The notes under the pieces are model-generated. The model did not search any database. It had not been told where the DNA came from and worked only from the letters and a program-made list of their open reading frames with translations. Below are positions 24,522 through 59,332 of a stretch of 60,273 nucleotides of DNA, piece after piece; the stretch's first letter is position 1; each line of letters starts with the position of its first letter. This stretch comes from a virus (Duplodnaviria; Heunggongvirae; Uroviricota; Caudoviricetes): IMG/VR virus record IMGVR_UViG_2778261541_000006, positions 1 through 60,273 of that record; one strand, 5' to 3'. A program made the translations under genes and the position numbers.

Positions 24522-25163
24522 TTATAGATAATTTCCTTTTCCTGTTAATACTCCCTTAGGCACCTGTTTTTGTGCCAGCGTTTGGGTGCCGCGAATTATG
24601 TTAATCAGAGGGCTTAGTAACGATGGTTCCTGGCGTGCCTCAACTTCTCCAGCCATTGCACTGATGTAGTCGGCGCTGGCAACGTTGTTGTATTCCGTCG
24701 CAAAGCAACATAGTAACGTCAGAACATGCTCTGTCGTTATTTCGCTCCAGTTGATGTTGAAAAATTCATCGCCTTTTTTATCGTGTTCGGAATCGAAGAT
24801 GCTTTGGTGGAGGATGTATTTGCCGGATTCCTTGCGCGGTAACTTGATTGCTTTCTGGCGTTCCAGCTCCTTATAAATCTGCATTGCCTCAATTAGTACC
24901 GGCCTGCCGTTCATGAAGGGATCGCGCAACCTTACACGCTGGCCAACTCGACCAGTAATAAAGCTGTTTTCCTCTTCCACCAGCACGATAAAACCTTTTT
25001 CCTCTTTCTCACGCAATTCGCGCAGCAACTGGAGTTCCATATCGCGGCGGCGTTCAGGGTAGCTGGTCCGCTCAGCCATTATCAGCTCGTTGTTGATCCA
25101 TGCAGCAGTCATTGACGCCGGTTTGCCGACGCTCATCGAAACAACGCATATTTTCTTATCCAT
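24522..25163 (-). CDS. hypothetical protein
   Basis: 213-aa ORF from Met50 of the track ORF (24522..25310), preceded by a GGGGG RBS; higher GC than the SIR2 gene; no recognisable domain. Confidence 0.45.
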   Translation of the reverse strand: MDKKICVVSMSVGKPASMTAAWINNELIMAERTSYPERRRDMELQLLRELREKEEKGFIVLVEEENSFITGRVGQRVRLRDPFMNGRPVLIEAMQIYKELERQKAIKLPRKESGKYILHQSIFDSEHDKKGDEFFNINWSEITTEHVLTLLCCFATEYNNVASADYISAMAGEVEARQEPSLLSPLINIIRGTQTLAQKQVPKGVLTGKGNYL

Positions 25164-31855: not shown

Positions 31856-32073
31856 AGTCCCTCCTGAGCAGAAGCGTTAACAGGGAGGCACCAGTAACTG
31901 AGAGAATTGCGTGAATCAGTGGAAAAACGGGCAGAGAAAATACATGGGGCGTCAGGAAGCTGAGTGCGGGCCTCATCTTCTGTTGGTGCAATAACGAAGT
32001 GATAGTGACGTTTTTGGCAGGAGTAAAAGCGCCAGATAAATTCAGGATGAGTTGGGGTAGGGATAGTAGCCAT
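31852..32073 (-). CDS. Icd-like small protein, copy 2
   Basis: 73-aa ORF (MATIPTPTHPEFIWRFYSCQKRHYHF...) with AAGGAGG RBS, overlapping the copy-2 antirepressor start by 4 nt; N-terminus differs from copy 1. Confidence 0.5.
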   Translation of the reverse strand: MATIPTPTHPEFIWRFYSCQKRHYHFVIAPTEDEARTQLPDAPCIFSARFSTDSRNSLSYWCLPVNASAQEGL

Positions 32074-32393
32074 ATTGGCAGCCTCCTTAGACGTTGGTAT
32101 GTAACCACCGCAGAAGAGACCAATCTTGCTGGCGGTGGACTGTACGGAGTTGGCCTTACTGGCGTCCAAGGTAACCAGCCTACCCGAAGGTAGCCCCATA
32201 CAGCCCACCATTGTAGATGGTGTGCGTGTACGCCGATACAAAAAAAGACGCGAGCGGCGTCTGTATCGCCTTAGACTTAAGCGGGAGGCCAATCCCGGCA
32301 CCCGTTTTAATGAGGTGCCTGATAAGCATAAACCGAAAATGCCTCAAGGCGCAAGAGGTCAGGTTCAATGTAACATCGGTAGCTAAAAAACAC

Positions 32394-32410
32394 AATTTAT
32401 TAGAGCAAAT
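32394..32410. promoter_or_regulatory. C1 operator upstream of icd-ant module 2
   Basis: AATTTATTAGAGCAAAT immediately beyond the pacB stop, at the head of the minus-strand module. Confidence 0.55.
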
Positions 32411-32412
32411 AT

Positions 32413-33897
32413 TCATTCATTAAGCCATGCCAGAGCTTCATCAACCTGCGCTTCGTCTTCGACGCTAAGCACTTCGTCCTGGGGAACATAATCCGCCAGC
32501 ATAGCGAAACAATATGTATCCCAATGGTCTGGTGAGTGCAGATTGAGTTTTTTCTTCATATCCTCCTTACTCATCACCTTCCATTGACCTGCGGAGTTAA
32601 TACCTACAGGTATTTTAGACGCTTCCTCAATGGTTGCATTACCCTTATCCAGTCTCATACGACCAGATTTTACGGCCTCTGCGGCTTGAACGTTGGCATA
32701 AGCACGTTTATCAAAGTACAGGCTCTTATCTTCACGGCTATGCATCTTTTTACCCCAGCGTATACGCTGTACGGTAATACCATAATACTCGTACATCAGA
32801 TCCGCCGTTGCTTTACCCAGCCCATCGCCGTCTATCGCTATGGTGATATTTGGGAATCGCTCAGGATTACATTCTGCGAAAATTTTGGCGGCAAGCTGCG
32901 TTTCTGTAACGTCTGTGTATTCCAGCATTCGATAGTTGATTACACGGCGTTTATTTCGCTGGCCGGACACCATCATGATATTGATAACGGACTTATCCCG
33001 TCCCGTACCACCAGCAACGTCCACACATGCAAGCCAGCCCCATCCTTTGGCAATCTTGACTTTCCGCCGCGTTGCACGTTCAACCTCATCACGTCCAAGA
33101 AGGAAGCCATCCTGTGATTTAGGGAATAGGCCGCGCACCTTAATCATGTACATAGGGTTATCACGCCCGCCGTACTCCGCCAGCTTCATTTTGATAAATG
33201 CTGGCGTTACCAGCGGTGATTCCTCACTGTTAAGCGTGATCGCCGTATAAACGCCATCAGGGTTACCAGGACGCTTGGCCAGTTTATGGTGTGTATCGTA
33301 GAAATAGCCGCTTGGGCGTGTAGGCTGTGACAGTAATAAGATGCGGTTATCCTGTCCGGTAAGAGCACCGGTGATGATACCGAAAGCTCTATCACTGACA
33401 CCGGAGGCTTCATCGATAATATACAGAAGATGATCTGCGTGTTCACCGGCGAGAGCTTCTTCACTTCCCAGACGAAAGCCCTTCGGTACTACAGTCCATA
33501 CACCTTTACCTGTAACCTCATAGAAAGCGGTTTCTGTCAGAACAAAATAATCAGCAAGCCATGGGAAACGGCTGGTGGCAGTAGCCCAGTTTATCTTGAT
33601 GTACTTGAATATACCGGTCATTACCTGCTGAATTTTGTTCGCAACGATAATGGCGCGGGCACCGGGATACATGATTATGAACAACATGATCATGATAGAA
33701 GTCATGTCTGATTTCCCGGTACCGTGACCAGACGAAACAGATGTCTTGCTACCCTGTTCCTGCACAGACTCAATAATCAGATCCTGCTGCCAGGTAGGTG
33801 TTTTGCCGAACAAAACATCAGCGGCAGCAATCCAGTCATAACGATATAGCGCCACCAGCTCGCGCCAACGTGGATCCGTTACGCAACTTCTGGCCAT
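32413..33897 (-). CDS. pacB: terminase large subunit PacB
   Basis: 494-aa ORF overlapping pacA stop by 1 nt; ATPase-like motifs ([19 protein letters not shown]). Confidence 0.9.
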
Positions 33898-35090
33898 TAA
33901 TCATCATCCCCGTATAGCTTGCGGGTAACTTCTTCGTCTTCCTCCTCGTCTTCGTCCAGGTCTTGTTCCAGCCATGGGTCGTTTGATACACCTTCAGTAT
34001 CAACATCTCCATAACCGCCTGTATCAACGATATCGGCGATTTCTTCCCTACGCTGCTCAATCCACAATGCGGCATCGGCGCGGCGGTTGGCGGCCCGTTC
34101 TCGCGCAACTTTGTCCAGATCTTCAAGAGAAGGGCCACCGACGGCTGTTTGCCTTTCCTCATCATCGGTATTGGTCTTAGGAGCACGCAGATCGGCTTTG
34201 ATTTGCTCCAGCATCAGGGGCGGCACTTTCCCGCCATGCGCCTCGATGAATTCAGCTGCTTCCAGCACTGACCAGTTATTTTCACGCTTTCGTTCGTATG
34301 CCAGCTTAACAATGCCAGCTTGCCCCATAGACAAAGCGTGCTTTTCCGCCTCCCGGCTTTCTTTTCGATAGTTATTCCGGATGCTGTAAATGGTGTTGAT
34401 CAGACTGCTTATCTGCGCGGAACAGCTGTTTAGCATGCTCGCGATACGGTATTCAGGCGGAGTACCTTCATCATCGTCTTTTTGCTGATCGCGCATTTCC
34501 TGCACCAAGCGAATACACGTATCCCTGGCGTTCTCCAGCATAAGGAGATGAGAAAGAGACTTTTCCAGAAGAGTGGTTTCCAGAACATCGGCCCCGGACC
34601 GACGCAACATAGCGCGCGCGGCCTTCCGCGCTTCAACGTTATCTATCAGGTAATCGCCAGCTTCGAATTCAAAGCGTTCACCATCATCATCCAGGGTGTC
34701 GCGTTCCAGGCGATCACGTAAGGTACGGTGGGCGCGGGTGATCACGTCATGATCATCAGAGCGATCATTTATGCGCTTATTTTGGCGCTTAGCGTTCTCG
34801 ACTGCGGCACTGACAACAGCATTAACTCTTTGTTTTTCAGCCATTTCAGTCGCAATGTGATCACCCGCACGTTGATCATTAGCGTGATCAATGATCATGC
34901 TTTTTAGTGGTTTCCTGACAGGCTTATTTGGCTTACGACTGTCCGCTGTTCCGGTGTCTTCTTTGAATGCACGGAGATAACGACGTGCGGTGTTTGGGTT
35001 GAGATTAAACTCGGCGGCATATTGTGCGATGGTGTAACCACCCTCTCGCGCCAGGCGAGCAAAATTCTTCTTGTGATCGTCCCAGGTCAC
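33897..35090 (-). CDS. pacA: terminase small subunit PacA
   Basis: 397-aa ORF with N-terminal HTH-like region and acidic C-terminus; contains the pac site in its 5' part. Confidence 0.9.
34741..34905 (-). other. pac: pac packaging site with TGATCA/G hexamer clusters
   Basis: Two clusters of GATC-containing hexamers (TGATCA, TGATCAT...) about 100 bp apart inside pacA; matches the P1 pac architecture. Confidence 0.7.
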
Positions 35091-35176
35091 TTATGCTTCC
35101 TTTCGTATAAAACTCTTTTTGACGCGAGGGTAACGAAAGTCACATGTCAAAAGGCCCGGAACGGGCAAGCAATCAA

Positions 35177-35629
35177 TCAGATACGTGCGGATGTGGCATT
35201 ACCGTAATGACGGTGCTGACGGACCACCTTATTGAAAAGTTGACGCGCCATCACCCAAGGCTGGTGCTCCCGGCGTTCCTTTTCGTCCTGCGTCATATAG
35301 AGTTCGTTCTGGAGTTTTTCATCAAACCGGCGCGGAGCGCGGCTGCGGCGAAAGAATTCAGGATTCAGAGAGTGGATCTGAAATCTACGTGGGCGTGTAC
35401 TGTCATCAATCAAAACAGACGAATACTTAGACACAGCGATAGCCTTTAAGCGCAGATAAACATCGCGCTTATCGACATCCAGATGCGGGTATTCCTTTTC
35501 AAGAATTGCTGCGAGTTCTTTCGCTGATAGAAGAGATTTAGTGCGGATCATGTAATCCGCAATCTCGTACGATGTTATTCGTGAGTGATTTATTTCCATG
35601 AAGTGGCGTCCCTGCCAGTTAAGTAACAT
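35177..35629 (-). CDS. lpa: Lpa late promoter activator (gp10)
   Basis: 150-aa ORF directly upstream of pacA; size and position match P1 Lpa. Confidence 0.8.
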   Translation of the reverse strand: MLLNWQGRHFMEINHSRITSYEIADYMIRTKSLLSAKELAAILEKEYPHLDVDKRDVYLRLKAIAVSKYSSVLIDDSTRPRRFQIHSLNPEFFRRSRAPRRFDEKLQNELYMTQDEKERREHQPWVMARQLFNKVVRQHRHYGNATSARI

Positions 35630-35704
35630 CCTGTCACCTACTGATTAGCCCATGTCAACTAATCAACGTCGAATATAATACCCTCGATTAAAGAAATAGC
35701 AATA

Positions 35705-35716
35705 CACTAGAGCAAT
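35705..35716. promoter_or_regulatory. degenerate C1 operator-like site upstream of lpa
   Basis: CACTAGAGCAAT partial match to the operator core. Confidence 0.3.
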
Positions 35717-35717
35717 T

Positions 35718-36761
35718 TTATCTAACACTAGACGAATGACTTGTGATAGCGCCGACTCCAAGCGCGTAATCAAAGAACAATCGTTGATGCATCGCCAGCC
35801 TACCGTGCGTCTTCTCCCAATTATCGCGGTCACGCTCAATATCACGCTGGCATGACTGGCACAGAGGAATAGCATAAATGTCATGCGCGCATAATCGACT
35901 ATGACGAACGATATAAGGCGTAATGTGAGCGCCAGCTCCCGCAGCTCCACAGCCACAGCATGGACGGGAAGCCACAAAGTCCATGTACTCGGGCAATTTT
36001 AGCGATTGAAGTTTTGGTATTTTGAAATGCGCCATACCTGGGTCGGAGTCAACATCCACAGGGCATACTTTTGCACGCATCGGCGCGGCGCGTTCTTCCA
36101 TCATCTGAACATATGCTGTAGCGCGATCGTCATACGGGCGAATATCCGCCTCTTTCAGAGGTCCGCTATCCTGCGGAGTAGCCTTCATCTTATTTATTGA
36201 TATGCGGCAGACTTCTTCCGGCATCAGGTGCATCATGTTGCGCATGAAAGCCCACCAGCACAGCTCCTGAATACTTAAATCATGGCTATTTGAAAGGCCC
36301 ATTTCCTGACGGGCGACATCCAGTATCCAGTTAACGCGATTATTGTGCAGCGTTTCTTTCAGCTCATTAAAACCACGCATCCGGTAATGGTTATCGTGAT
36401 GCCAGCACAACAACACCGCGCTATTGTCTCGTTCAGCGTGGACAATATGGTTGTCACACCAACTACGATCTGCGGCCTGGCATTGCCCCTCTTTCCTACG
36501 CAACCACGCCACCAGCGCGTCAATTCCACCAATACGGCGAAACAGTTCATCGCTGTTAAAAAACGGCTGCAACGCCTCATTTGTTGCCATAGTTTGCTCG
36601 GAAACAACGAGGCCGTCGTCCATGTGCTCGATTAACTCACGCGGCACCGGCTCCATAATAAATTTACGGCCAGCCTCCACCAGCTTTCTGACTTCCTGAT
36701 CCACTTTGAATGTGGCGACGCCAAGCTCTTTTTGTACAAAGGGAGTAATTACGGCTTTCAC
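35718..36761 (-). CDS. PdcB-like protein (post-doc position), cysteine-rich C-terminus
   Basis: 347-aa ORF downstream of doc; C-terminal Cys/His cluster (PCCGCG ... HITPY ... PLCQSCQ) suggests an HNH-like zinc-binding fold. Confidence 0.4.
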
Positions 36762-36788
36762 ATCACACCTTTCATCACTGATTGGGCT

Positions 36789-36989
36789 TTATCTGCTGCC
36801 CGGCATTCTCTGTTTAAGCACAACCATTTCCTGACGGCATAACACAGCAATAGCGGTCCTAGCACCAATTTGCTTACCAACCAGGTATTGCTTTACCTCG
36901 CGGCGACTCACGCCATCAAGAAGCATCTTTAACGCTTCACGGGACAATTTGTTGTATTTACGTGCCATTAATCTACTCCGCAGAACCAT
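36789..36989 (-). CDS. small basic protein (pdcA-like position)
   Basis: 66-aa ORF overlapping the doc stop region. Confidence 0.3.
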
Positions 36990-37353
36990 ATAATCTACGT
37001 AACGTGTCGGCGACAGAAGATACAGATATCTCGCCAGTCGCAGCGCCTACAGTAAGGTCTGCCAGTTCAGGTGAATCAAATACCTGCACCCCGTTACGGC
37101 GTAGAAATAACAGCGCACTGTTTAGCGCGGTACGCTTATTGGCATCATTGAATATATGCCCTCTCGCAGTAGCCACCAGGTAGGTTGCGGAGACTTCGAA
37201 AAGGTCGGTAATCTCTTCGTACACAACTCTGGCCTGGACTCTCCCGATAATGGCCTCTGCCCTGCCCGGATCTGACATTCCCGGCAGGCCGCCGTAGCGG
37301 TTTATATTCGCATCATGAAGCGCAATAAGTTCTTCCGGTGATATATGCCTCAT
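36973..37353 (-). CDS. doc: Doc toxin (Fic-family kinase)
   Basis: 126-aa translation [25 protein letters not shown] ... matches P1 Doc as I recall it. Confidence 0.95.
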
Positions 37354-37574
37354 TATCGGTTAACCAGTTCCTTGTTGGTGGAGTCCAGGGTGTCGAACAG
37401 GGATGCAAATTCAGCATCCAGCGCCGCTTTTTTGTAGGCTTCGAAAGTAGCCTTACTGACAATTACTGCTGGCTCACGGCCTCTGCGGGTGATTTCAACC
37501 TCTTCCCCGGCTTCAACATTGTTGAGCACTTCAGAAAGGTTGCCGCGCGCGGTACGGAAGTTAATAGATTGCAT
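37353..37574 (-). CDS. phd: Phd antitoxin
   Basis: 73-aa product [40 protein letters not shown] ... matches P1 Phd; stop overlaps doc start by 1 nt. Confidence 0.95.
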
Positions 37575-37740
37575 AAACACCTCGTGTACTCGTTATGTGT
37601 ACACAATTATAAACTTCACAGGCATAAAGCACCAGCACTTTGCGGCTTAACAAACCTCTAGGCAGGTCATTCGTAGGAACTGCTAAAGCATCCAAGTTGC
37701 TGTAGAATCACCGCCAATTACATAAGCCTGAAAGAAGTGG

Positions 37741-39303
37741 ATGAAAATGACAAGTATTCAACAACGTGCAGAGCTTCATCGTCAAATCTGGCAAATTGCT
37801 AACGATGTCAGGGGTTCGGTCGATGGATGGGATTTTAAGCAATACGTTCTGGGCGCACTTTTCTACCGTTTTATCAGCGAAAATTTTTCCAGTTATATTG
37901 AAGCCGGTGATGACAGTATCTGTTATGCGAAACTGAATGACAGCGTAATTACTGATGACATTAAAGACGATGCCATCAAAACCAAAGGTTACTTCATCTA
38001 CCCCAGTCAGCTTTTCTGCAACGTAGCTGCGAAAGCAAATACCAATGACAGACTGAATGCGGATTTAAACAGCATCTTCGTTGCTATCGAAAGTTCTGCT
38101 TACGGTTACCCTTCAGAAGCTGACATCAAAGGTTTGTTTGCTGATTTCGATACTACCAGTAACCGCCTGGGTAACACCGTTAAAGATAAAAATGCCCGCC
38201 TGGCTGCGGTTCTGAAAGGAGTTGAAGGGCTAAAACTTGGTGACTTCCACGAACATCAGATTGACCTGTTCGGTGACGCCTATGAGTTCCTGATTTCTAA
38301 CTATGCGGCAAATGCCGGTAAGTCAGGCGGTGAGTTCTTTACACCGCAGCACGTCTCCAAGCTGATTGCACAACTGGCTATGCACGGGCAGACCAACGTT
38401 AACAAAATCTACGACCCGGCAGCAGGTTCCGGCTCACTGTTGTTGCAGGCTAAAAAGCAGTTTGATAACCATATCATTGAAGAAGGCTTTTTCGGACAGG
38501 AAATCAACCATACGACCTATAACCTGGCACGTATGAACATGTTTTTGCACAACATCAACTACGACAAGTTTGATATCAAGCTGGGCAATACGCTGACTGA
38601 GCCGCACTTCAGAGATGAAAAACCGTTTGATGCCATCGTTTCTAACCCGCCGTATTCGGTGAAATGGATTGGCAGCGATGACCCGACGCTGATTAACGAT
38701 GAACGTTTTGCCCCGGCTGGCGTCCTGGCCCCCAAATCCAAAGCTGACTTCGCCTTTGTACTACATGCGCTGAACTATCTTTCGGCCAAAGGTCGCGCTG
38801 CGATTGTTTGCTTCCCGGGTATTTTTTACCGTGGCGGCGCAGAGCAGAAAATCCGTCAGTATCTGGTCGACAATAACTATGTCGAAACCGTGATTTCACT
38901 GGCACCGAACCTGTTCTTTGGCACCACCATTGCCGTAAACATTCTGGTTCTGTCTAAACATAAAACGGATACCAACGTTCAGTTTATTGACGCCAGCGAA
39001 CTGTTCAAAAAAGAGACTAACAACAATATCCTGACCGATGCCCATATCGAACAGATTATGCAGGTATTTTCCAGCAAGGAAGATGTTGCTCATCTGGCAA
39101 AATCTGTCACGTTTGAGGCCGTTGTCGCTAATGACTATAACCTGTCGGTAAGCAGCTATGTGGAAGCGAAAGATAACCGCGAAATTATCGATATCGGTGA
39201 GCTGAATGCTGAGCTGAAAACCACGGTCAGCAAAATCGACCAGTTGCGTAAAGATATTGATGCAATTGTGGCTGAAATTGAAGGCTGCGAGGTGCAGAAA
39301 TGA
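37741..39303 (+). CDS. hsdM: type I restriction-modification methyltransferase subunit HsdM
   Basis: 520-aa ORF with N6-adenine MTase motifs (NPPYS at [10 protein letters not shown]; AdoMet-binding [10 protein letters not shown]). Confidence 0.9.
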
Positions 39304-40508
39304 GCGAGCTGAGCTATCTGGAAAAACTGTTGGATGGGGTTGAGGTTGAGTGGGCAACATTGGGTTCTATGGCAGATATCGGTACTGGAAGCTCAAATCG
39401 TCAGGATGAAAGCGAAAATGGAATTTATCCATTCTATGTTCGCTCAAAGAATATCTTGAAGTCAGATACCTTTGAATTTGATGAGGTAGCAATAGTCATT
39501 CCTGGTGAAGGTGGAATTGGCGACATATTTCACTATGTTGAGGGGAAATATGCTCTACATCAAAGGGCGTATAGAATTCGTATCACAACTAATGCCGTAG
39601 ACACGAAGTTTTTGTATTACTTCATGTCATCTAGCTTTAAGCAGTACATCTTGACAAAAAGTGTGGGTGCTACCGCCATTTCGATAAGAAAACCCATGCT
39701 GGAAGGATTTAAAGTTCCCATTCCTAGCCCGGACAACCCGGAAAAGTCCCTAGCCATCCAGTCTGAAATCGTTCGGATTCTGGATAAGTTTACTGCACTT
39801 ACCGCTGAGCTAACCGCTGAGCTAACCGCTGAGCTTAACATGCGTAAAAAACAGTACAACTTCTATCGTGACCAGTTGTTGAGTTTTAAAGAGGGGGAGG
39901 TTGAGTGGAAAAGTCTGGAAGATATTGCTTTATTTAGACGGGGTTCATTTCCACAGCCATATGGAAATAGTGAATGGTATGATGGAGAAGGTTGCATGCC
40001 TTTTGTTCAGGTAGCTGATGTGGCTGATTCAGGATTTACATTACACACAAAAACCAAACAACAGATTTCTAAGATTGCACAAAGCAAGAGCGTTTTTGTT
40101 GAGGCTGGAACAATTGTTGTGACACTGCAAGGTACTATTGGTCGAGTAGCAATAACACAGTACGATTGTTATGTGGATAGAACTCTTGCAATATTTACTA
40201 ACTTTAAAGTAAAAATAAACAAAAAATACTTTGCTTATCAACTAAAAGCTAAATTCGATTCAGAGAAAGAATTTGCAAGAGGAAGTACTTTGAAGACAAT
40301 TACAAAAGAAGAGTTTTCTAAGTTCCAATTACCTCTTCCCTCAATAAACGAACAAAATCGTATAGTATCACTATTGGATAAGTTCGATACACTGGCTCAT
40401 TCAATAAAACAAGGTCTCCCGCGTGAAATCGAGTTGCGCCAGAAACAATACGAGTACTATCGTGATTTACTGTTCAGTTTCCCGAAACCTGAAACTGTCA
40501 GTAATTAA
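39300..40508 (+). CDS. hsdS: type I R-M specificity subunit HsdS, type IC (EcoR124-like)
   Basis: 402-aa ORF overlapping hsdM stop by 4 nt; two target-recognition domains separated by a central [12 protein letters not shown] repeat region. Confidence 0.85.
39800..39835 (+). repeat. 3 x 12-bp tandem repeat (ACCGCTGAGCTA) encoding TAEL x3 in the hsdS central conserved region
   Basis: Three direct copies, the third with one substitution; in-frame within hsdS. Confidence 0.8.
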
Positions 40509-40629
40509 TTGACCGTTGCTACCGACCGGGCCACCTTAACATCCGGTCTGTATATAGACTATTTTTTACGTGCCGGAAGTCACTCTTAACGCCCTTCCGA
40601 CCCTTGCCAGACGGCACAAAGGATGCGCT

Positions 40630-43600
40630 ATGACTCATCAAACACACACCATTGCTGAATCCAATAACTTTATCGTTCTTGATAAGTACATCAAAGCTGA
40701 GCAAACAGGCAACAGCTATCAGAGCGAATCGGACCTGGAACAGGAACTGATTCAGGACCTGCGAAATCAGGGCTATGAATTTATATCCGTAAAATCTCAG
40801 TCGGCGATGCTGGCCAATGTTCGACAACAGCTTCAGAGCCTCAATGGTGTGGTGTTTAATGACAGCGAGTGGCGGCGTTTCACGGAGCAGTATCTGGACA
40901 ACCCGAGCGATGGAATTCTGGATAAGACCCGTAAAATCCATATCGACTATATTTGCGACTTTATTTTTGATGACGAGCGACTTGAGAACATCTATTTGAT
41001 AGATAAAAAGAATCTCATGCGCAATAAGGTGCAGATTATCCAGCAGTTTGAACAGACGGGTTCTCATGCTAACCGTTATGACGTCACGATCCTGGTTAAT
41101 GGTTTACCGCTGGTGCAAATCGAACTAAAAAAACGCGGGGTGGCGATTCGTGAGGCTTTCAACCAGATACATCGTTACAGTAAAGAGAGTTTTAACAGCG
41201 AAAATTCCCTGTTTAAGTATCTGCAACTGTTTGTCATTTCTAACGGCACCGATACCCGTTATTTTGCCAACACGACAAAGCGCGATAAAAACAGTTTTGA
41301 CTTCACCATGAACTGGGCTAAAGCAGACAATACACTGATTAAAGACCTCAAAGACTTTACCGCTACCTTTTTCCAGAAACATACTCTGCTTAATGTTCTG
41401 GTGAACTACAGCGTTTTTGACAGCAGTCAGACACTACTGGTAATGCGACCGTACCAGATTGCCGCCACCGAGCGCATTCTGTGGAAAATTAAGAGTTCCT
41501 TTACAGCGAAGAACTGGTCAAAACCGGAAAGCGGTGGGTATATCTGGCACACTACCGGTTCTGGTAAAACCCTCACCAGCTTTAAAGCCGCGCGTCTGGC
41601 AACAGAGCTGGACTTTATTGATAAAGTCTTCTTCGTGGTCGACAGGAAAGACCTCGATTACCAGACCATGAAGGAATATCAGCGTTTTTCGCCAGACAGC
41701 GTCAACGGCTCGGAAAATACCGCAGGACTTAAACGAAATCTGGACAAGGACGATAACAAAATTATCGTCACTACTATTCAGAAACTCAATAACCTGATGA
41801 AAGCAGAAAGCGACCTGCCTGTATATAATCAGCAAGTGGTGTTTATATTTGATGAATGCCACCGCAGCCAGTTTGGAGAAGCGCAGAAAAACCTGAAGAA
41901 GAAATTCAAACGCTATTATCAGTTTGGTTTTACCGGCACACCTATTTTCCCGGAAAACGCCTTAGGCTCAGAAACGACCGCCAGCGTATTTGGTCGTGAA
42001 TTGCATTCGTATGTAATTACCGATGCGATTCGTGATGAAAAAGTGCTCAAATTCAAGGTGGACTACAACGATGTGCGGCCACAGTTTAAGTCTTTAGAGA
42101 CAGAAACTGACGAGAAAAAACTAAGTGCGGCTGAAAATCAGCAGGCGTTTCTTCATCCCATGCGTATACAGGAAATTACGCAATATATTCTGAATAACTT
42201 CCGCCAGAAGACGCACCGTACTTTCCCTAGCGCAAAAGGTTTTAATGCTATGTTGGCAGTGAGCAGCGTGGATGCTGCAAAAGCCTATTACGCGGCGTTT
42301 AAACGGTTACAAGAGGAAGCCGCTAATAAATCTGCAACTTATAAACCGCTGCGTGTTGCGACAATCTTCTCCTTTGCCGCTAATGAAGAACAAAATGCCA
42401 TTGGTGAAATTTCCGATGAAACTTTTGATACCAGCGCAATGGACAGCAGTGCTAAAGAGTTTCTTGACGCTGCAATTCGTGAGTATAACAGCTATTTTAA
42501 AACTAACTTCAGCACCGACAGTAACGGTTTTCAGAACTACTATCGCGATTTAGCCCAACGGGTTAAAAATCAGGATATCGATCTGTTAATTGTCGTGGGG
42601 ATGTTTTTAACTGGCTTCGATGCTCCAACATTGAACACGCTATTCGTCGATAAAAACCTGCGTTTTCACGGCTTGATGCAGGCATTTTCCCGCACCAACC
42701 GTATTTATGATGGAACTAAAACCTTCGGTAATATCGTCACTTTCCGGGATCTGGAACGCTCAACTATTGATGCCATAACGCTGTTTGGTGACAAAAACAC
42801 CAAAAATGTGGTTTTAGAAAAGAGTTATGCAGAGTATATGGAAGGCTTTACTGATGCTGCCACTGGTGAAGCTAAGCGCGGCTTTATGGCAGTAGTTTCA
42901 GAACTGGAACAACGGTTCCCTGACCCTGCCAGTATTGAAAGTGAAAAAGAGAAGAAAGACTTCGTTAAACTGTTTGGTGAATACCTGCGTGCCGAGAACA
43001 TCCTGCAAAACTATGATGAATTTGCCACGCTGAAAGCCCTGCAACAAATCGATCTTAGCGATCCTGTTGCGGTAGAAAAATTCAAAGAAGAACATTATGT
43101 GGATGATGAAAAGTTCGCTGAATTGCAAACGATTCGTCTCCCTGCTGAACGCAAGATTCAGGATTATCGTTCTGCCTATAACGATATTCGTGACTGGCAG
43201 CGCCGCGAGAAAGAAGCTGATAAAAAAGAAAAATCAACCACTGACTGGGATGACGTGGTTTTTGAGGTCGATTTGCTGAAGTCTCAGGAAATAAACCTGG
43301 ATTATATCCTTGGACTGATTTTCGAACACAACAGACAAAATAAAGGCAAGGGCGAAATGATCGAAGAGGTCAAACGCTTAATTCGTTCAAGCCTGGGGAA
43401 CCGGGCGAAAGAGGGCCTGGTGGTCGATTTTATTCAGCAAACGAACCTGGATGATTTACCAGACAAAGCCAGTATCATTGAGGCATTCTTTACGTTTGCT
43501 CAACGCGAACAGCAACGTGAAGCAGAAGCATTGATAAAAGAAGAAAATCTCAATGAAGATGCAGCAAAACGCTATATTCGCACGTCTTTAAAACGCGAAT

Positions 43601-43746
43601 ACGCCACCGAAAATGGCACAGAATTAAACGAAACATTACCAAAACTTAGTCCGTTGAATCCGCAATATAAAACGAAAAAACAGGCAGTTTTCCAGAAAAT
43701 CGTCTCGTTTATTGAGAAGTTTAAAGGCGTAGGCGGAAAAATATAG
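40630..43746 (+). CDS. hsdR: type I R-M restriction subunit HsdR (EcoR124-family)
   Basis: Start at internal Met ([14 protein letters not shown]) with AAAGGA RBS; helicase motifs (TGSGKT, DECHRSQ) and PD-(D/E)xK region; N-terminus matches my recollection of EcoR124I HsdR. Confidence 0.9.
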
Positions 43747-43765
43747 CCCAATTCGTGTTTTTCTT

Positions 43766-43794
43766 GCGGGTTCTTAATTAAACCCGCAAGAGCT
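43766..43794. terminator. hairpin terminator after hsdR
   Basis: Inverted repeat CTTGCGGGTT-CTTAATTAA-ACCCGCAAG just after the hsdR stop. Confidence 0.4.
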
Positions 43795-43998
43795 CGTGGG
43801 GTTCCAAATGGCTAATATACTCCCCTTACCCATGCGCGACGATGCCGCCAAAAGTGATAGAGAACAGCCAGAAATAGATCGCGGTCATAATGATTTTGAA
43901 TGCCGTGTTCATATCTTCAGCTCCTGTGATTGATTGGATATATGCCGCGCCCCTTGCGGCATGTTTTTATTTTCACACACTCTGTTTTAAAAATCAAG

Positions 43999-44013
43999 AT
44001 TTATTAGAGCAAT
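43999..44013. promoter_or_regulatory. C1 operator
   Basis: ATTTATTAGAGCAAT, reverse-orientation operator motif. Confidence 0.5.
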
Positions 44014-44519
44014 TATTGTTGATGAAGAAGCGCATTTTCATACTCCCTGACCATTAACGTAAGTACGCCGTGACTCCTGAAAACACGCGCCACTTCAATC
44101 TTATCTTCCAGCGCGAACGCAATTTTACTTATACCAATTTTCTTCAGGAGATCAATCTTTGCTGGACCGTCATTTCTGTCATCGGTGGCAGGACGCATAG
44201 ATAGCAAAGGCTCAGCCCCATTTGTTACGTGCTTACGCAACCAGGCTCGTGTTTTATCCCTGGCTATCTCACAGCGCCCGGTTACAAACCAGAGGGTGTA
44301 AATGCCGGACAACTGGCGCACCATATCAATAACTGGAGTGATGGGAGCATCAGTGTCACAGGCAAGGTTAAACTCGTTCCAGTGCTCTGTTAATGCACCT
44401 TTGCCAGGTGGTGGAAGTAAATGCAGCCTGTCTTCCGTTGCCTCTGATATCGTCCCATCAATATCAACTATGACGATGTACGGACGTTCCTGGTGTGCGT
44501 GTTTATTGAAAATACTCAA
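44013..44519 (-). CDS. HAD-superfamily hydrolase-like protein
   Basis: 168-aa ORF with N-terminal DxDGT motif (IVDIDGTI) typical of HAD phosphatases and polynucleotide 3'-phosphatases. Confidence 0.45.
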   Translation of the reverse strand: MSIFNKHAHQERPYIVIVDIDGTISEATEDRLHLLPPPGKGALTEHWNEFNLACDTDAPITPVIDMVRQLSGIYTLWFVTGRCEIARDKTRAWLRKHVTNGAEPLLSMRPATDDRNDGPAKIDLLKKIGISKIAFALEDKIEVARVFRSHGVLTLMVREYENALLHQQ

Positions 44520-44591
44520 ATGCCCTCCTCATTGGACGAAAAAAATGCTGGTGGGAGCACTCCACCAGCATTAAAAGTGACACTGTAACTA

Positions 44592-59178: not shown

Positions 59179-59254
59179 TGGTGCCGATTAACGGACTCGA
59201 ACCGCTGACATCCTGCTTACAAGGCAGGCGCTCTACCAACTGAGCTAAACCGGC
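59179..59254 (-). tRNA. tRNA-Thr (UGU)
   Basis: Minus-strand 76-nt cloverleaf GCCGGTT-TAGCTCAGTTGGTAGAGC-CCTGC-CTTGTAA-GCAGG-...-GGTTCGAGTCC-...-CCA. Confidence 0.85.
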
Positions 59255-59256
59255 AT

Positions 59257-59332
59257 TGGCGATGGTGGATGGATTTGAACCATCGACCCGTTGATTAACA
59301 GTCAACCGCTCTAACCGCTGAGCTACACCATC
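59257..59332 (-). tRNA. tRNA-Asn (GUU)
   Basis: Minus-strand 76-nt cloverleaf GATGGTG-TAGCTCAGCGGTTAGAGC-GGTTGA-CTGTTAA-TCAAC-...-GGTTCAAATCC-...-G-CCA. Confidence 0.85.

Follow-up and report, generated by a model that had tools for sequence, protein, structure and literature searches.

The locus examined here raises the question of whether a short tandem repeat at the center of a phage-borne type I restriction–modification specificity gene (hsdS) is a fixed structural linker, or a module whose copy number changes and might alter the sequence recognized by the enzyme. The window, i.e., the whole stretch of DNA that was analyzed, comprises 60,273 nucleotides of a caudovirus (IMG/VR record IMGVR_UViG_2778261541_000006), and the hsdS gene within it codes for three consecutive copies of the tetrapeptide TAEL. 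We conclude, with a probability of about 0.88, that this array is the known (TAEL)n spacer-length module of the central helix of type IC HsdS proteins, with a copy number that changes by misalignment of the units. The mechanism is already textbook knowledge for EcoR124I/II, and the finding opens no new question; what is new here is the comparative evidence for a very recent repeat change in an uncharacterised allele.

The array lies in an operon with the gene order hsdM–hsdS–hsdR, wholly on the plus strand, in which the start codon of hsdS overlaps the stop codon of hsdM (ATGA); both the order and the translational overlap are those of type IC systems, as are the N-terminal, central and distal conserved regions of HsdS around two variable target-recognition domains (TRDs; Table 1). 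HsdM matches the EcoR124 M protein (7bst_D) with 1152 bits over residues 1–520, while HsdR matches EcoR124 HsdR (2w00_A) with 2267 bits over residues 1–1038 and contains the EcoR124_C domain (Pfam, 1.2e-71). These full-length scores are consistent with near-identity to the EcoR124 subunits. Type I families were originally defined operationally, by subunit complementation or antibody cross-reaction. Because of the full-length EcoR124 matches of HsdM and HsdR, the EcoR124_C domain and the conserved regions of HsdS, the operon is, as judged from its sequence, truly of type IC: its M and R subunits are of the EcoR124 type, and its specificity is a different one. With respect to gene starts, the hsdM product is called as 518 aa on related contigs; the longest hsdR ORF begins with a GTG at 40570 (1058 aa), and the end-to-end match to EcoR124 HsdR runs from the ATG at 40630 (1038 aa), which is also the start called on related contigs.

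Table 1. Features of the type IC operon and of its hsdS gene (window coordinates; identities refer to EcoR124 HsdS).
Feature	Position	Strand	Remarks
hsdM, N6-adenine methyltransferase subunit, 520 aa from ATG	37741..39303	+	Pfam N6_Mtase, HsdM_N
hsdS, specificity subunit, 402 aa	39300..40508	+	Pfam Methylase_S (PF01420) twice; alignment to EcoR124 HsdS
TRD1, aa 19–139	39354..39716	+	13% identity to EcoR124 TRD1; specifies one half-site
Central conserved region, aa 140–204, holds the TAEL array	39717..39911	+	59/65 aligned positions identical to EcoR124
TAEL array, variable-length module	39801..39836	+	three in-frame 12-bp units, HsdS residues 168–179
TRD2, aa 205–348	39912..40343	+	18% identity to EcoR124 TRD2; specifies the other half-site
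Distal (C-terminal) conserved region, coiled-coil partner helix	40344..40505	+	87% identity to EcoR124
hsdR, translocase/endonuclease subunit, 1038 aa	40630..43746	+	Pfam HSDR_N, SWI2_SNF2, T1R_D3-like, EcoR124_C

The operon adjoins phd/doc, pdcA/B, lpa and pacA/B on a P1-like backbone, and its carrier is a P1-like phage-plasmid. It differs in this from EcoR124, which resides on a conjugative plasmid (R124), whereas the window operon sits beside phd/doc. Type IC cassettes are found at the same site in other Punavirus genomes and in many E. coli plasmids. Those of the P1-like phages (Escherichia phage vB_EcoM-673R5 and phi456) and of E. coli plasmids share with the window the insertion between phd/doc and the pmgS side, the same hsdM and hsdR, and the conserved parts of HsdS, but combine other TRDs. 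Contig NJYI01000025.1 (assembly GCA_002459205.1) is 99.99% identical to the window over 21 kb. A comparison of window positions 32017–50516 with a contig from run SRR31599386 (L044) gave 164 differing positions in 18.5 kb. Because just 2 of these fall within hsdMSR as against about 160 in the flanks, where they are concentrated at 43.5–49 kb, the comparison suggests that the hsdMSR cassette was exchanged between P1-like backbones by recombination. A literature search found no publication on NJYI01, GCA_002459205 or SRR31599384/6.

HsdS aligns over residues 1–402 with the EcoR124 specificity protein (PDB 7bst_A, E = 2.6e-75). The likeness resides in the conserved regions: the N-terminal segment is 94% identical to its EcoR124 counterpart and the central region 91%, with the six differing positions of the latter made up of a four-residue TAEL gap and two substitutions. 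This gap is the sole indel in the central region, and the 12-bp TAEL unit occupies the same position in both proteins. In contrast, the two TRDs are unrelated to those of EcoR124 (Table 1), so the half-sites must differ; relatives of solved structure all have TRDs unrelated to those of the window HsdS. An AlphaFold2 model of HsdS (mean pLDDT 80) predicts a continuous helix at residues 147–194, with the repeats in its middle, and a partner helix at residues 349–391 formed by the distal conserved region. Within the gene, a 19-nt direct repeat (39781–39799 and 40375–40393, 79% identical) further encompasses the LDKF motif in both the central and the distal conserved region. Left over from the duplication that gave HsdS its two halves, this repeat might serve as a substrate for TRD-deleting recombination, a process that has been described in type IC enzymes.

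Read directly from the window, the array consists of the units ACCGCTGAGCTA, ACCGCTGAGCTA and ACCGCTGAGCTT, flanked by CACTT on the left and AACATG on the right, and is translated in frame as (TAEL)3. A preliminary description of this DNA had already recognized three 12-bp TAEL repeats in the central conserved region of HsdS, with a third copy ending in T; direct reading, together with the alignment to 7bst_A for the location, bears this out, and only its placement at 39800–39835 differs, by a single base at either end and without consequence. Tandem Repeats Finder reports 39801–39835 with a period of 12, 2.9 copies, 100% matches and a score of 70. The array is one of just three tandem arrays in the whole 60-kb window. 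Its 35-nt periodic run occurs a single time in the window, even with 3 mismatches tolerated, and in none of 100 dinucleotide-preserving shuffles.

What copy number does in this position is known from related enzymes. EcoR124I has two TAEL repeats and recognizes GAAN6RTCG, whereas EcoR124II has three and recognizes GAAN7RTCG, the change between them occurring via unequal crossing-over (PMC3874165, Loenen et al. 2014, ‘Gap length changes’); the preliminary description had quoted this rule correctly. EcoDXXI and EcoprrI, which have N7 spacers, resemble the window allele in their three TAEL repeats and in family architecture (PMC3874165). A plasmid gene annotated as EcoprrI-like (H46) matched the window in the conserved parts only, which suggests that the window TRDs differ from those of EcoprrI. 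It had also been proposed that TRDs unrelated to those of EcoR124 would put the window allele outside the spacer rule. The TRDs are indeed unrelated, but the rule is not refuted by this, because the repeat sits in the conserved helix and not in the TRDs, and EcoR124I/EcoDXXI hybrids with altered TAEL numbers changed their recognition as predicted (PMC3874165).

We infer the effect of repeat number in the window allele from this work on EcoR124I/II and EcoDXXI. HsdS would hold its two TRDs apart on two antiparallel conserved helices, and each added TAEL would extend the central helix by about one turn. The extra turn would move and rotate one TRD relative to the other by about 1 bp, lengthening the non-specific spacer by 1 bp. 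Accordingly phrased for the window allele, the methylated adenines are predicted to lie 8 nt apart for the three-copy enzyme and 7 nt apart for a two-copy sister, which would recognize the same half-sites one base pair closer together. If the half-sites are of 3 + 4 bp, as in characterised type IC enzymes, this would correspond to N7 and N6, respectively, figures that are extrapolated from EcoR124, only the increment of 1 bp per repeat being independent of the TRDs in the published hybrids. The copy number itself would change when identical 12-bp units are misaligned, by either unequal crossing-over or replication slippage. The consequences of such a change for defense have been documented: when one repeat was removed from cloned EcoR124II, converting it to EcoR124I, defense against T5-like phages was redirected in line with the sites that these phages contain (PMC10644984). 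Spacer-length variation of the TAEL kind was left to future work in a survey of phase-variable type I systems (PMC7383803).

Direct evidence for a change in copy number comes from sister alleles that are otherwise identical to that of the window. One HsdS (P0001) is the window protein with one TAEL fewer and is encoded on the same P1-like segment in two short-read assemblies, from runs SRR31599384 (L041) and SRR31598644 (L042). The three-repeat window protein is encoded on nine contigs, including those from runs SRR31599386 (L044) and SRR31599232 (L129) and from assembly GCA_002459205.1 (L043). Because their accessions differ little in number, the runs may stem from a single submission. When the two-copy contig of SRR31599384 is aligned with the three-copy contig of SRR31599386, 18,422 bp match with 0 mismatches and one 12-bp gap; the unit missing from both two-copy contigs is exactly ACCGCTGAGCTA, and the gap lies inside the array. 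The window allele has, to judge from these comparisons, changed its copy number recently, and a natural pair of alleles differing by one TAEL unit only is a further likeness to EcoR124I/II. The earlier proposal that the allele is in a three-repeat state and could switch thereby gains support, the same allele being present on a plasmid segment that differs solely in having two repeats; the comparison with related hsdS alleles that yielded these sisters had itself been suggested in the preliminary description.

These contigs also bear on the reading that the array is a fixed structural linker, with the two-copy contigs being assembly or sequencing artefacts or unrelated alleles and no real switching taking place. 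In its favor, the two-copy form of this exact allele comes solely from two automated short-read assemblies (Logan). However, it appears in two independent runs, and the three-copy form in several. At k = 31 the three-copy array contains no repeated k-mer, and the two-copy contig has 7 k-mers that are absent from the three-copy contig; hence, the two-copy contig is not a de Bruijn collapse of the three-copy one. More generally, at k ≥ 25 each copy state has private k-mers and none is repeated within the array, so that a graph collapse cannot interconvert the two states. The same 2/3 polymorphism is seen in four other groups of otherwise-identical alleles, obtained with other assemblers and from other collections. 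We therefore regard a fixed linker as extremely improbable.

The codons of the array point to the source of the third unit. The leucine codons of successive units are CTA, CTA and CTT in the three-copy form and CTA and CTT in the two-copy form; the use of CTA in units 1 and 2 also sets the window apart from EcoR124I/II. At these positions, CTA is found in 0 of the 120 type IC loci of the survey described below, nearly all of which have CTT; in P0002 and P0004, chromosomal alleles that share the window TRDs and lie beside an island with an Ag43-type autotransporter, the codons are CTT, CTT. In comparison with both sets, the synonymous CTA codon is restricted to the window lineage. Two CTA units side by side are accounted for most simply if a single such unit was duplicated, in which case the third copy arose in situ by misalignment rather than by import from another hsdS; this evidence is compatible with the present two-copy plasmids being either ancestral or revertant.

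Import deserves consideration in view of how freely the halves of these genes are recombined. In the phage, plasmid and complete E. coli genome collections, megablast found no record holding at least 80% of the window hsdS, and the sister alleles described above came instead from a look-up of contigs that encode the exact proteins. Plasmids NZ_CP079777 and NZ_CP060066 combine the window TRD1 with other TRD2s, and numerous E. coli plasmids and chromosomes combine the window TRD2 (97–98% nucleotide identity) with other TRD1s. Such separate occurrence of TRD1 and TRD2 is the usual mosaic pattern of the type IC family. Both plasmid genes with the window TRD1 are broken by insertion sequences (L002, NZ_CP079777.1, 3001–4501; L004, NZ_CP060066.1, 3001–5409): one has an IS1 just past the central region and three copies, and the other an internal ISKpn26 and two copies.

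The full TRD pair of the window is found in four HsdS proteins of the protein collection (P0001 to P0004), which are 398 aa long, 98–99% identical to the window protein and each shorter by exactly one TAEL. It is also found in a chromosomal type IC operon (L131–L138) with 98% amino acid identity, two repeats and CTT codons; this operon adjoins an Ag43-type autotransporter, a YeeP-like GTPase and an insertion sequence. As the same TRD pair is present on a chromosomal island and on a P1-like phage-plasmid, the specificity has moved between the two. The window allele itself represents an uncharacterised type IC specificity with a new TRD pair.

The copy-number difference might, on this background, have come from a different type IC hsdS through homologous recombination, rather than being produced by slippage or unequal crossing-over within the allele. 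Reassortment of TRDs across the central region is rampant, the survey loci combining 23 TRD1 clusters with 35 TRD2 clusters in 52 ways; each of the window TRDs is found with other partners; and one E. coli strain may have several type IC systems, at up to 6 places in its genome. Against this, the lineage-specific CTA codon is present in both copy states and the third unit is a second CTA unit, a form absent from the 120 survey loci and from the chromosomal alleles with the same TRDs. Further, there are zero mismatches in the 18.4 kb around the indel. Import is very unlikely on these grounds, and misalignment within the allele is the reading that we carry forward.

We surveyed copy number by scanning an exact 23-nt pattern (the left flank plus the first unit) against three public collections, which yielded 120 loci (36 viral, 5 genome and 79 metagenome). 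Counted at the protein level, and as loci rather than independent events, two TAEL copies are present in 71 of the 120 (59%), three in 47 (39%), four in 1 and six in 1. Three copies are no more common than two, and the remark in a review that three repeats are apparently the optimum (PMC3874165) must be qualified accordingly. Among the TRD pairs seen at least twice, 7 of 13 contain both two- and three-copy forms, and of the groups with exactly identical flanking halves, 4 of 8 are polymorphic for two versus three. Loci that a strict DNA regular expression scored as ‘1-copy’ proved at the protein level to have two or three copies with synonymous or T/S variants. A 2:3 ratio from a protein search was rejected, three repeats being found in none of the best 120 matches: the protein collection lacks the three-repeat HsdS in 5 of 5 cases (window, L018, L058, L080 and L093), and two-repeat sisters are present in 3 of 3. 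Since three-repeat HsdS is missing from that collection, the 2:3 counts were taken from the DNA-pattern loci only. The extremes of the range both come from metagenomes. The four-TAEL allele codes for an intact 434-aa HsdS (L082, OASQ01000144.1, 81–1383, matched-strand orientation), and the six-copy allele (L075, OATH01001096.1, 6856–7933, reverse complement of the stored locus) lies in a gene that is probably disrupted, its ORF having no conserved start.

The survey also informs the reading that, with these particular TRDs, a change in TAEL number would leave the enzyme relaxed, weakened or inactive instead of cleanly lengthening its spacer from N to N+1, so that one copy state would be a loss-of-function variant. 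Gubler and Bickle are said to have obtained relaxed recognition with non-natural repeat numbers in 1991. The distal partner helix is of constant length in the survey loci, without an indel that co-varies with TAEL copy number, i.e., there is no compensating change, and the six-copy gene is the apparently disrupted one. How the coiled coil accommodates the shift in register is, according to the review, not understood (PMC3874165). On the other side, two and three copies are both common, in intact hsdS ORFs with intact neighboring hsdM and hsdR, and full activity of both states is documented for EcoR124I/II as well as for EcoDXXI hybrids, whose TRDs differ (PMC3874165). A loss of function in one state is improbable, and a predicted change in spacer length between two working enzymes is what we retain.

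Other kinds of switching were considered as well. Like phasevarions and shufflons of the SpnD39III type, the window allele would undergo a repeat-mediated, heritable and reversible change of methyltransferase specificity. Unlike phasevarions, its unit of 12 bp always stays in frame and permits no on/off frameshift; as the frame is always kept, a change in copy number would be a specificity switch and not an on/off switch. A frameshifting simple-sequence-repeat switch was rejected, two-, three- and four-copy forms all being full-length ORFs. An inverting or multi-hsdS shufflon was likewise rejected: a tblastn search of the whole window with HsdS returns the gene itself and nothing else, 36900–44600 contains no inverted repeat longer than 24 nt, and no recombinase associated with the hsd locus was found.

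This small survey suggests that the TAEL switch is common in nature and faster than amino acid substitution in the same gene. We consider tentatively, at somewhat less than even odds, that TAEL copy number changes frequently and continues to do so, as a contingency mechanism, in type IC systems throughout the Enterobacteriaceae, those of P1-like phage-plasmids included, because about half of the repeatedly sampled identical alleles are 2/3 polymorphic and the window plasmid has a sister with 0 SNPs in the other copy state. If so, close isolates, possibly from one collection, would differ in restriction specificity without any other change. This would matter in interpreting why near-clonal E. 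coli isolates differ in their methylomes or resist the transfer of plasmids and phages from one another. The natural pair of two- and three-repeat alleles on an otherwise identical 18-kb segment is well suited to a test of the ‘+1 bp per TAEL’ rule with unrelated TRDs.

Beyond the operon, the 12-mer ACCGCTGAGCTA occurs one more time in the window, at 59314–59325 within a tRNA-Asn gene, where its match to the stem sequence appears to be fortuitous. The gene is one of three phage-borne tRNA genes on the minus strand (Met, Thr and Asn; 57299–57374, 59179–59254 and 59257–59332). The other two tandem arrays in the window are duplications of 30 bp at 24951–25006 (1.9 copies, 78% matches) and of 15 bp at 54827–54855 (1.9 copies, 92% matches).
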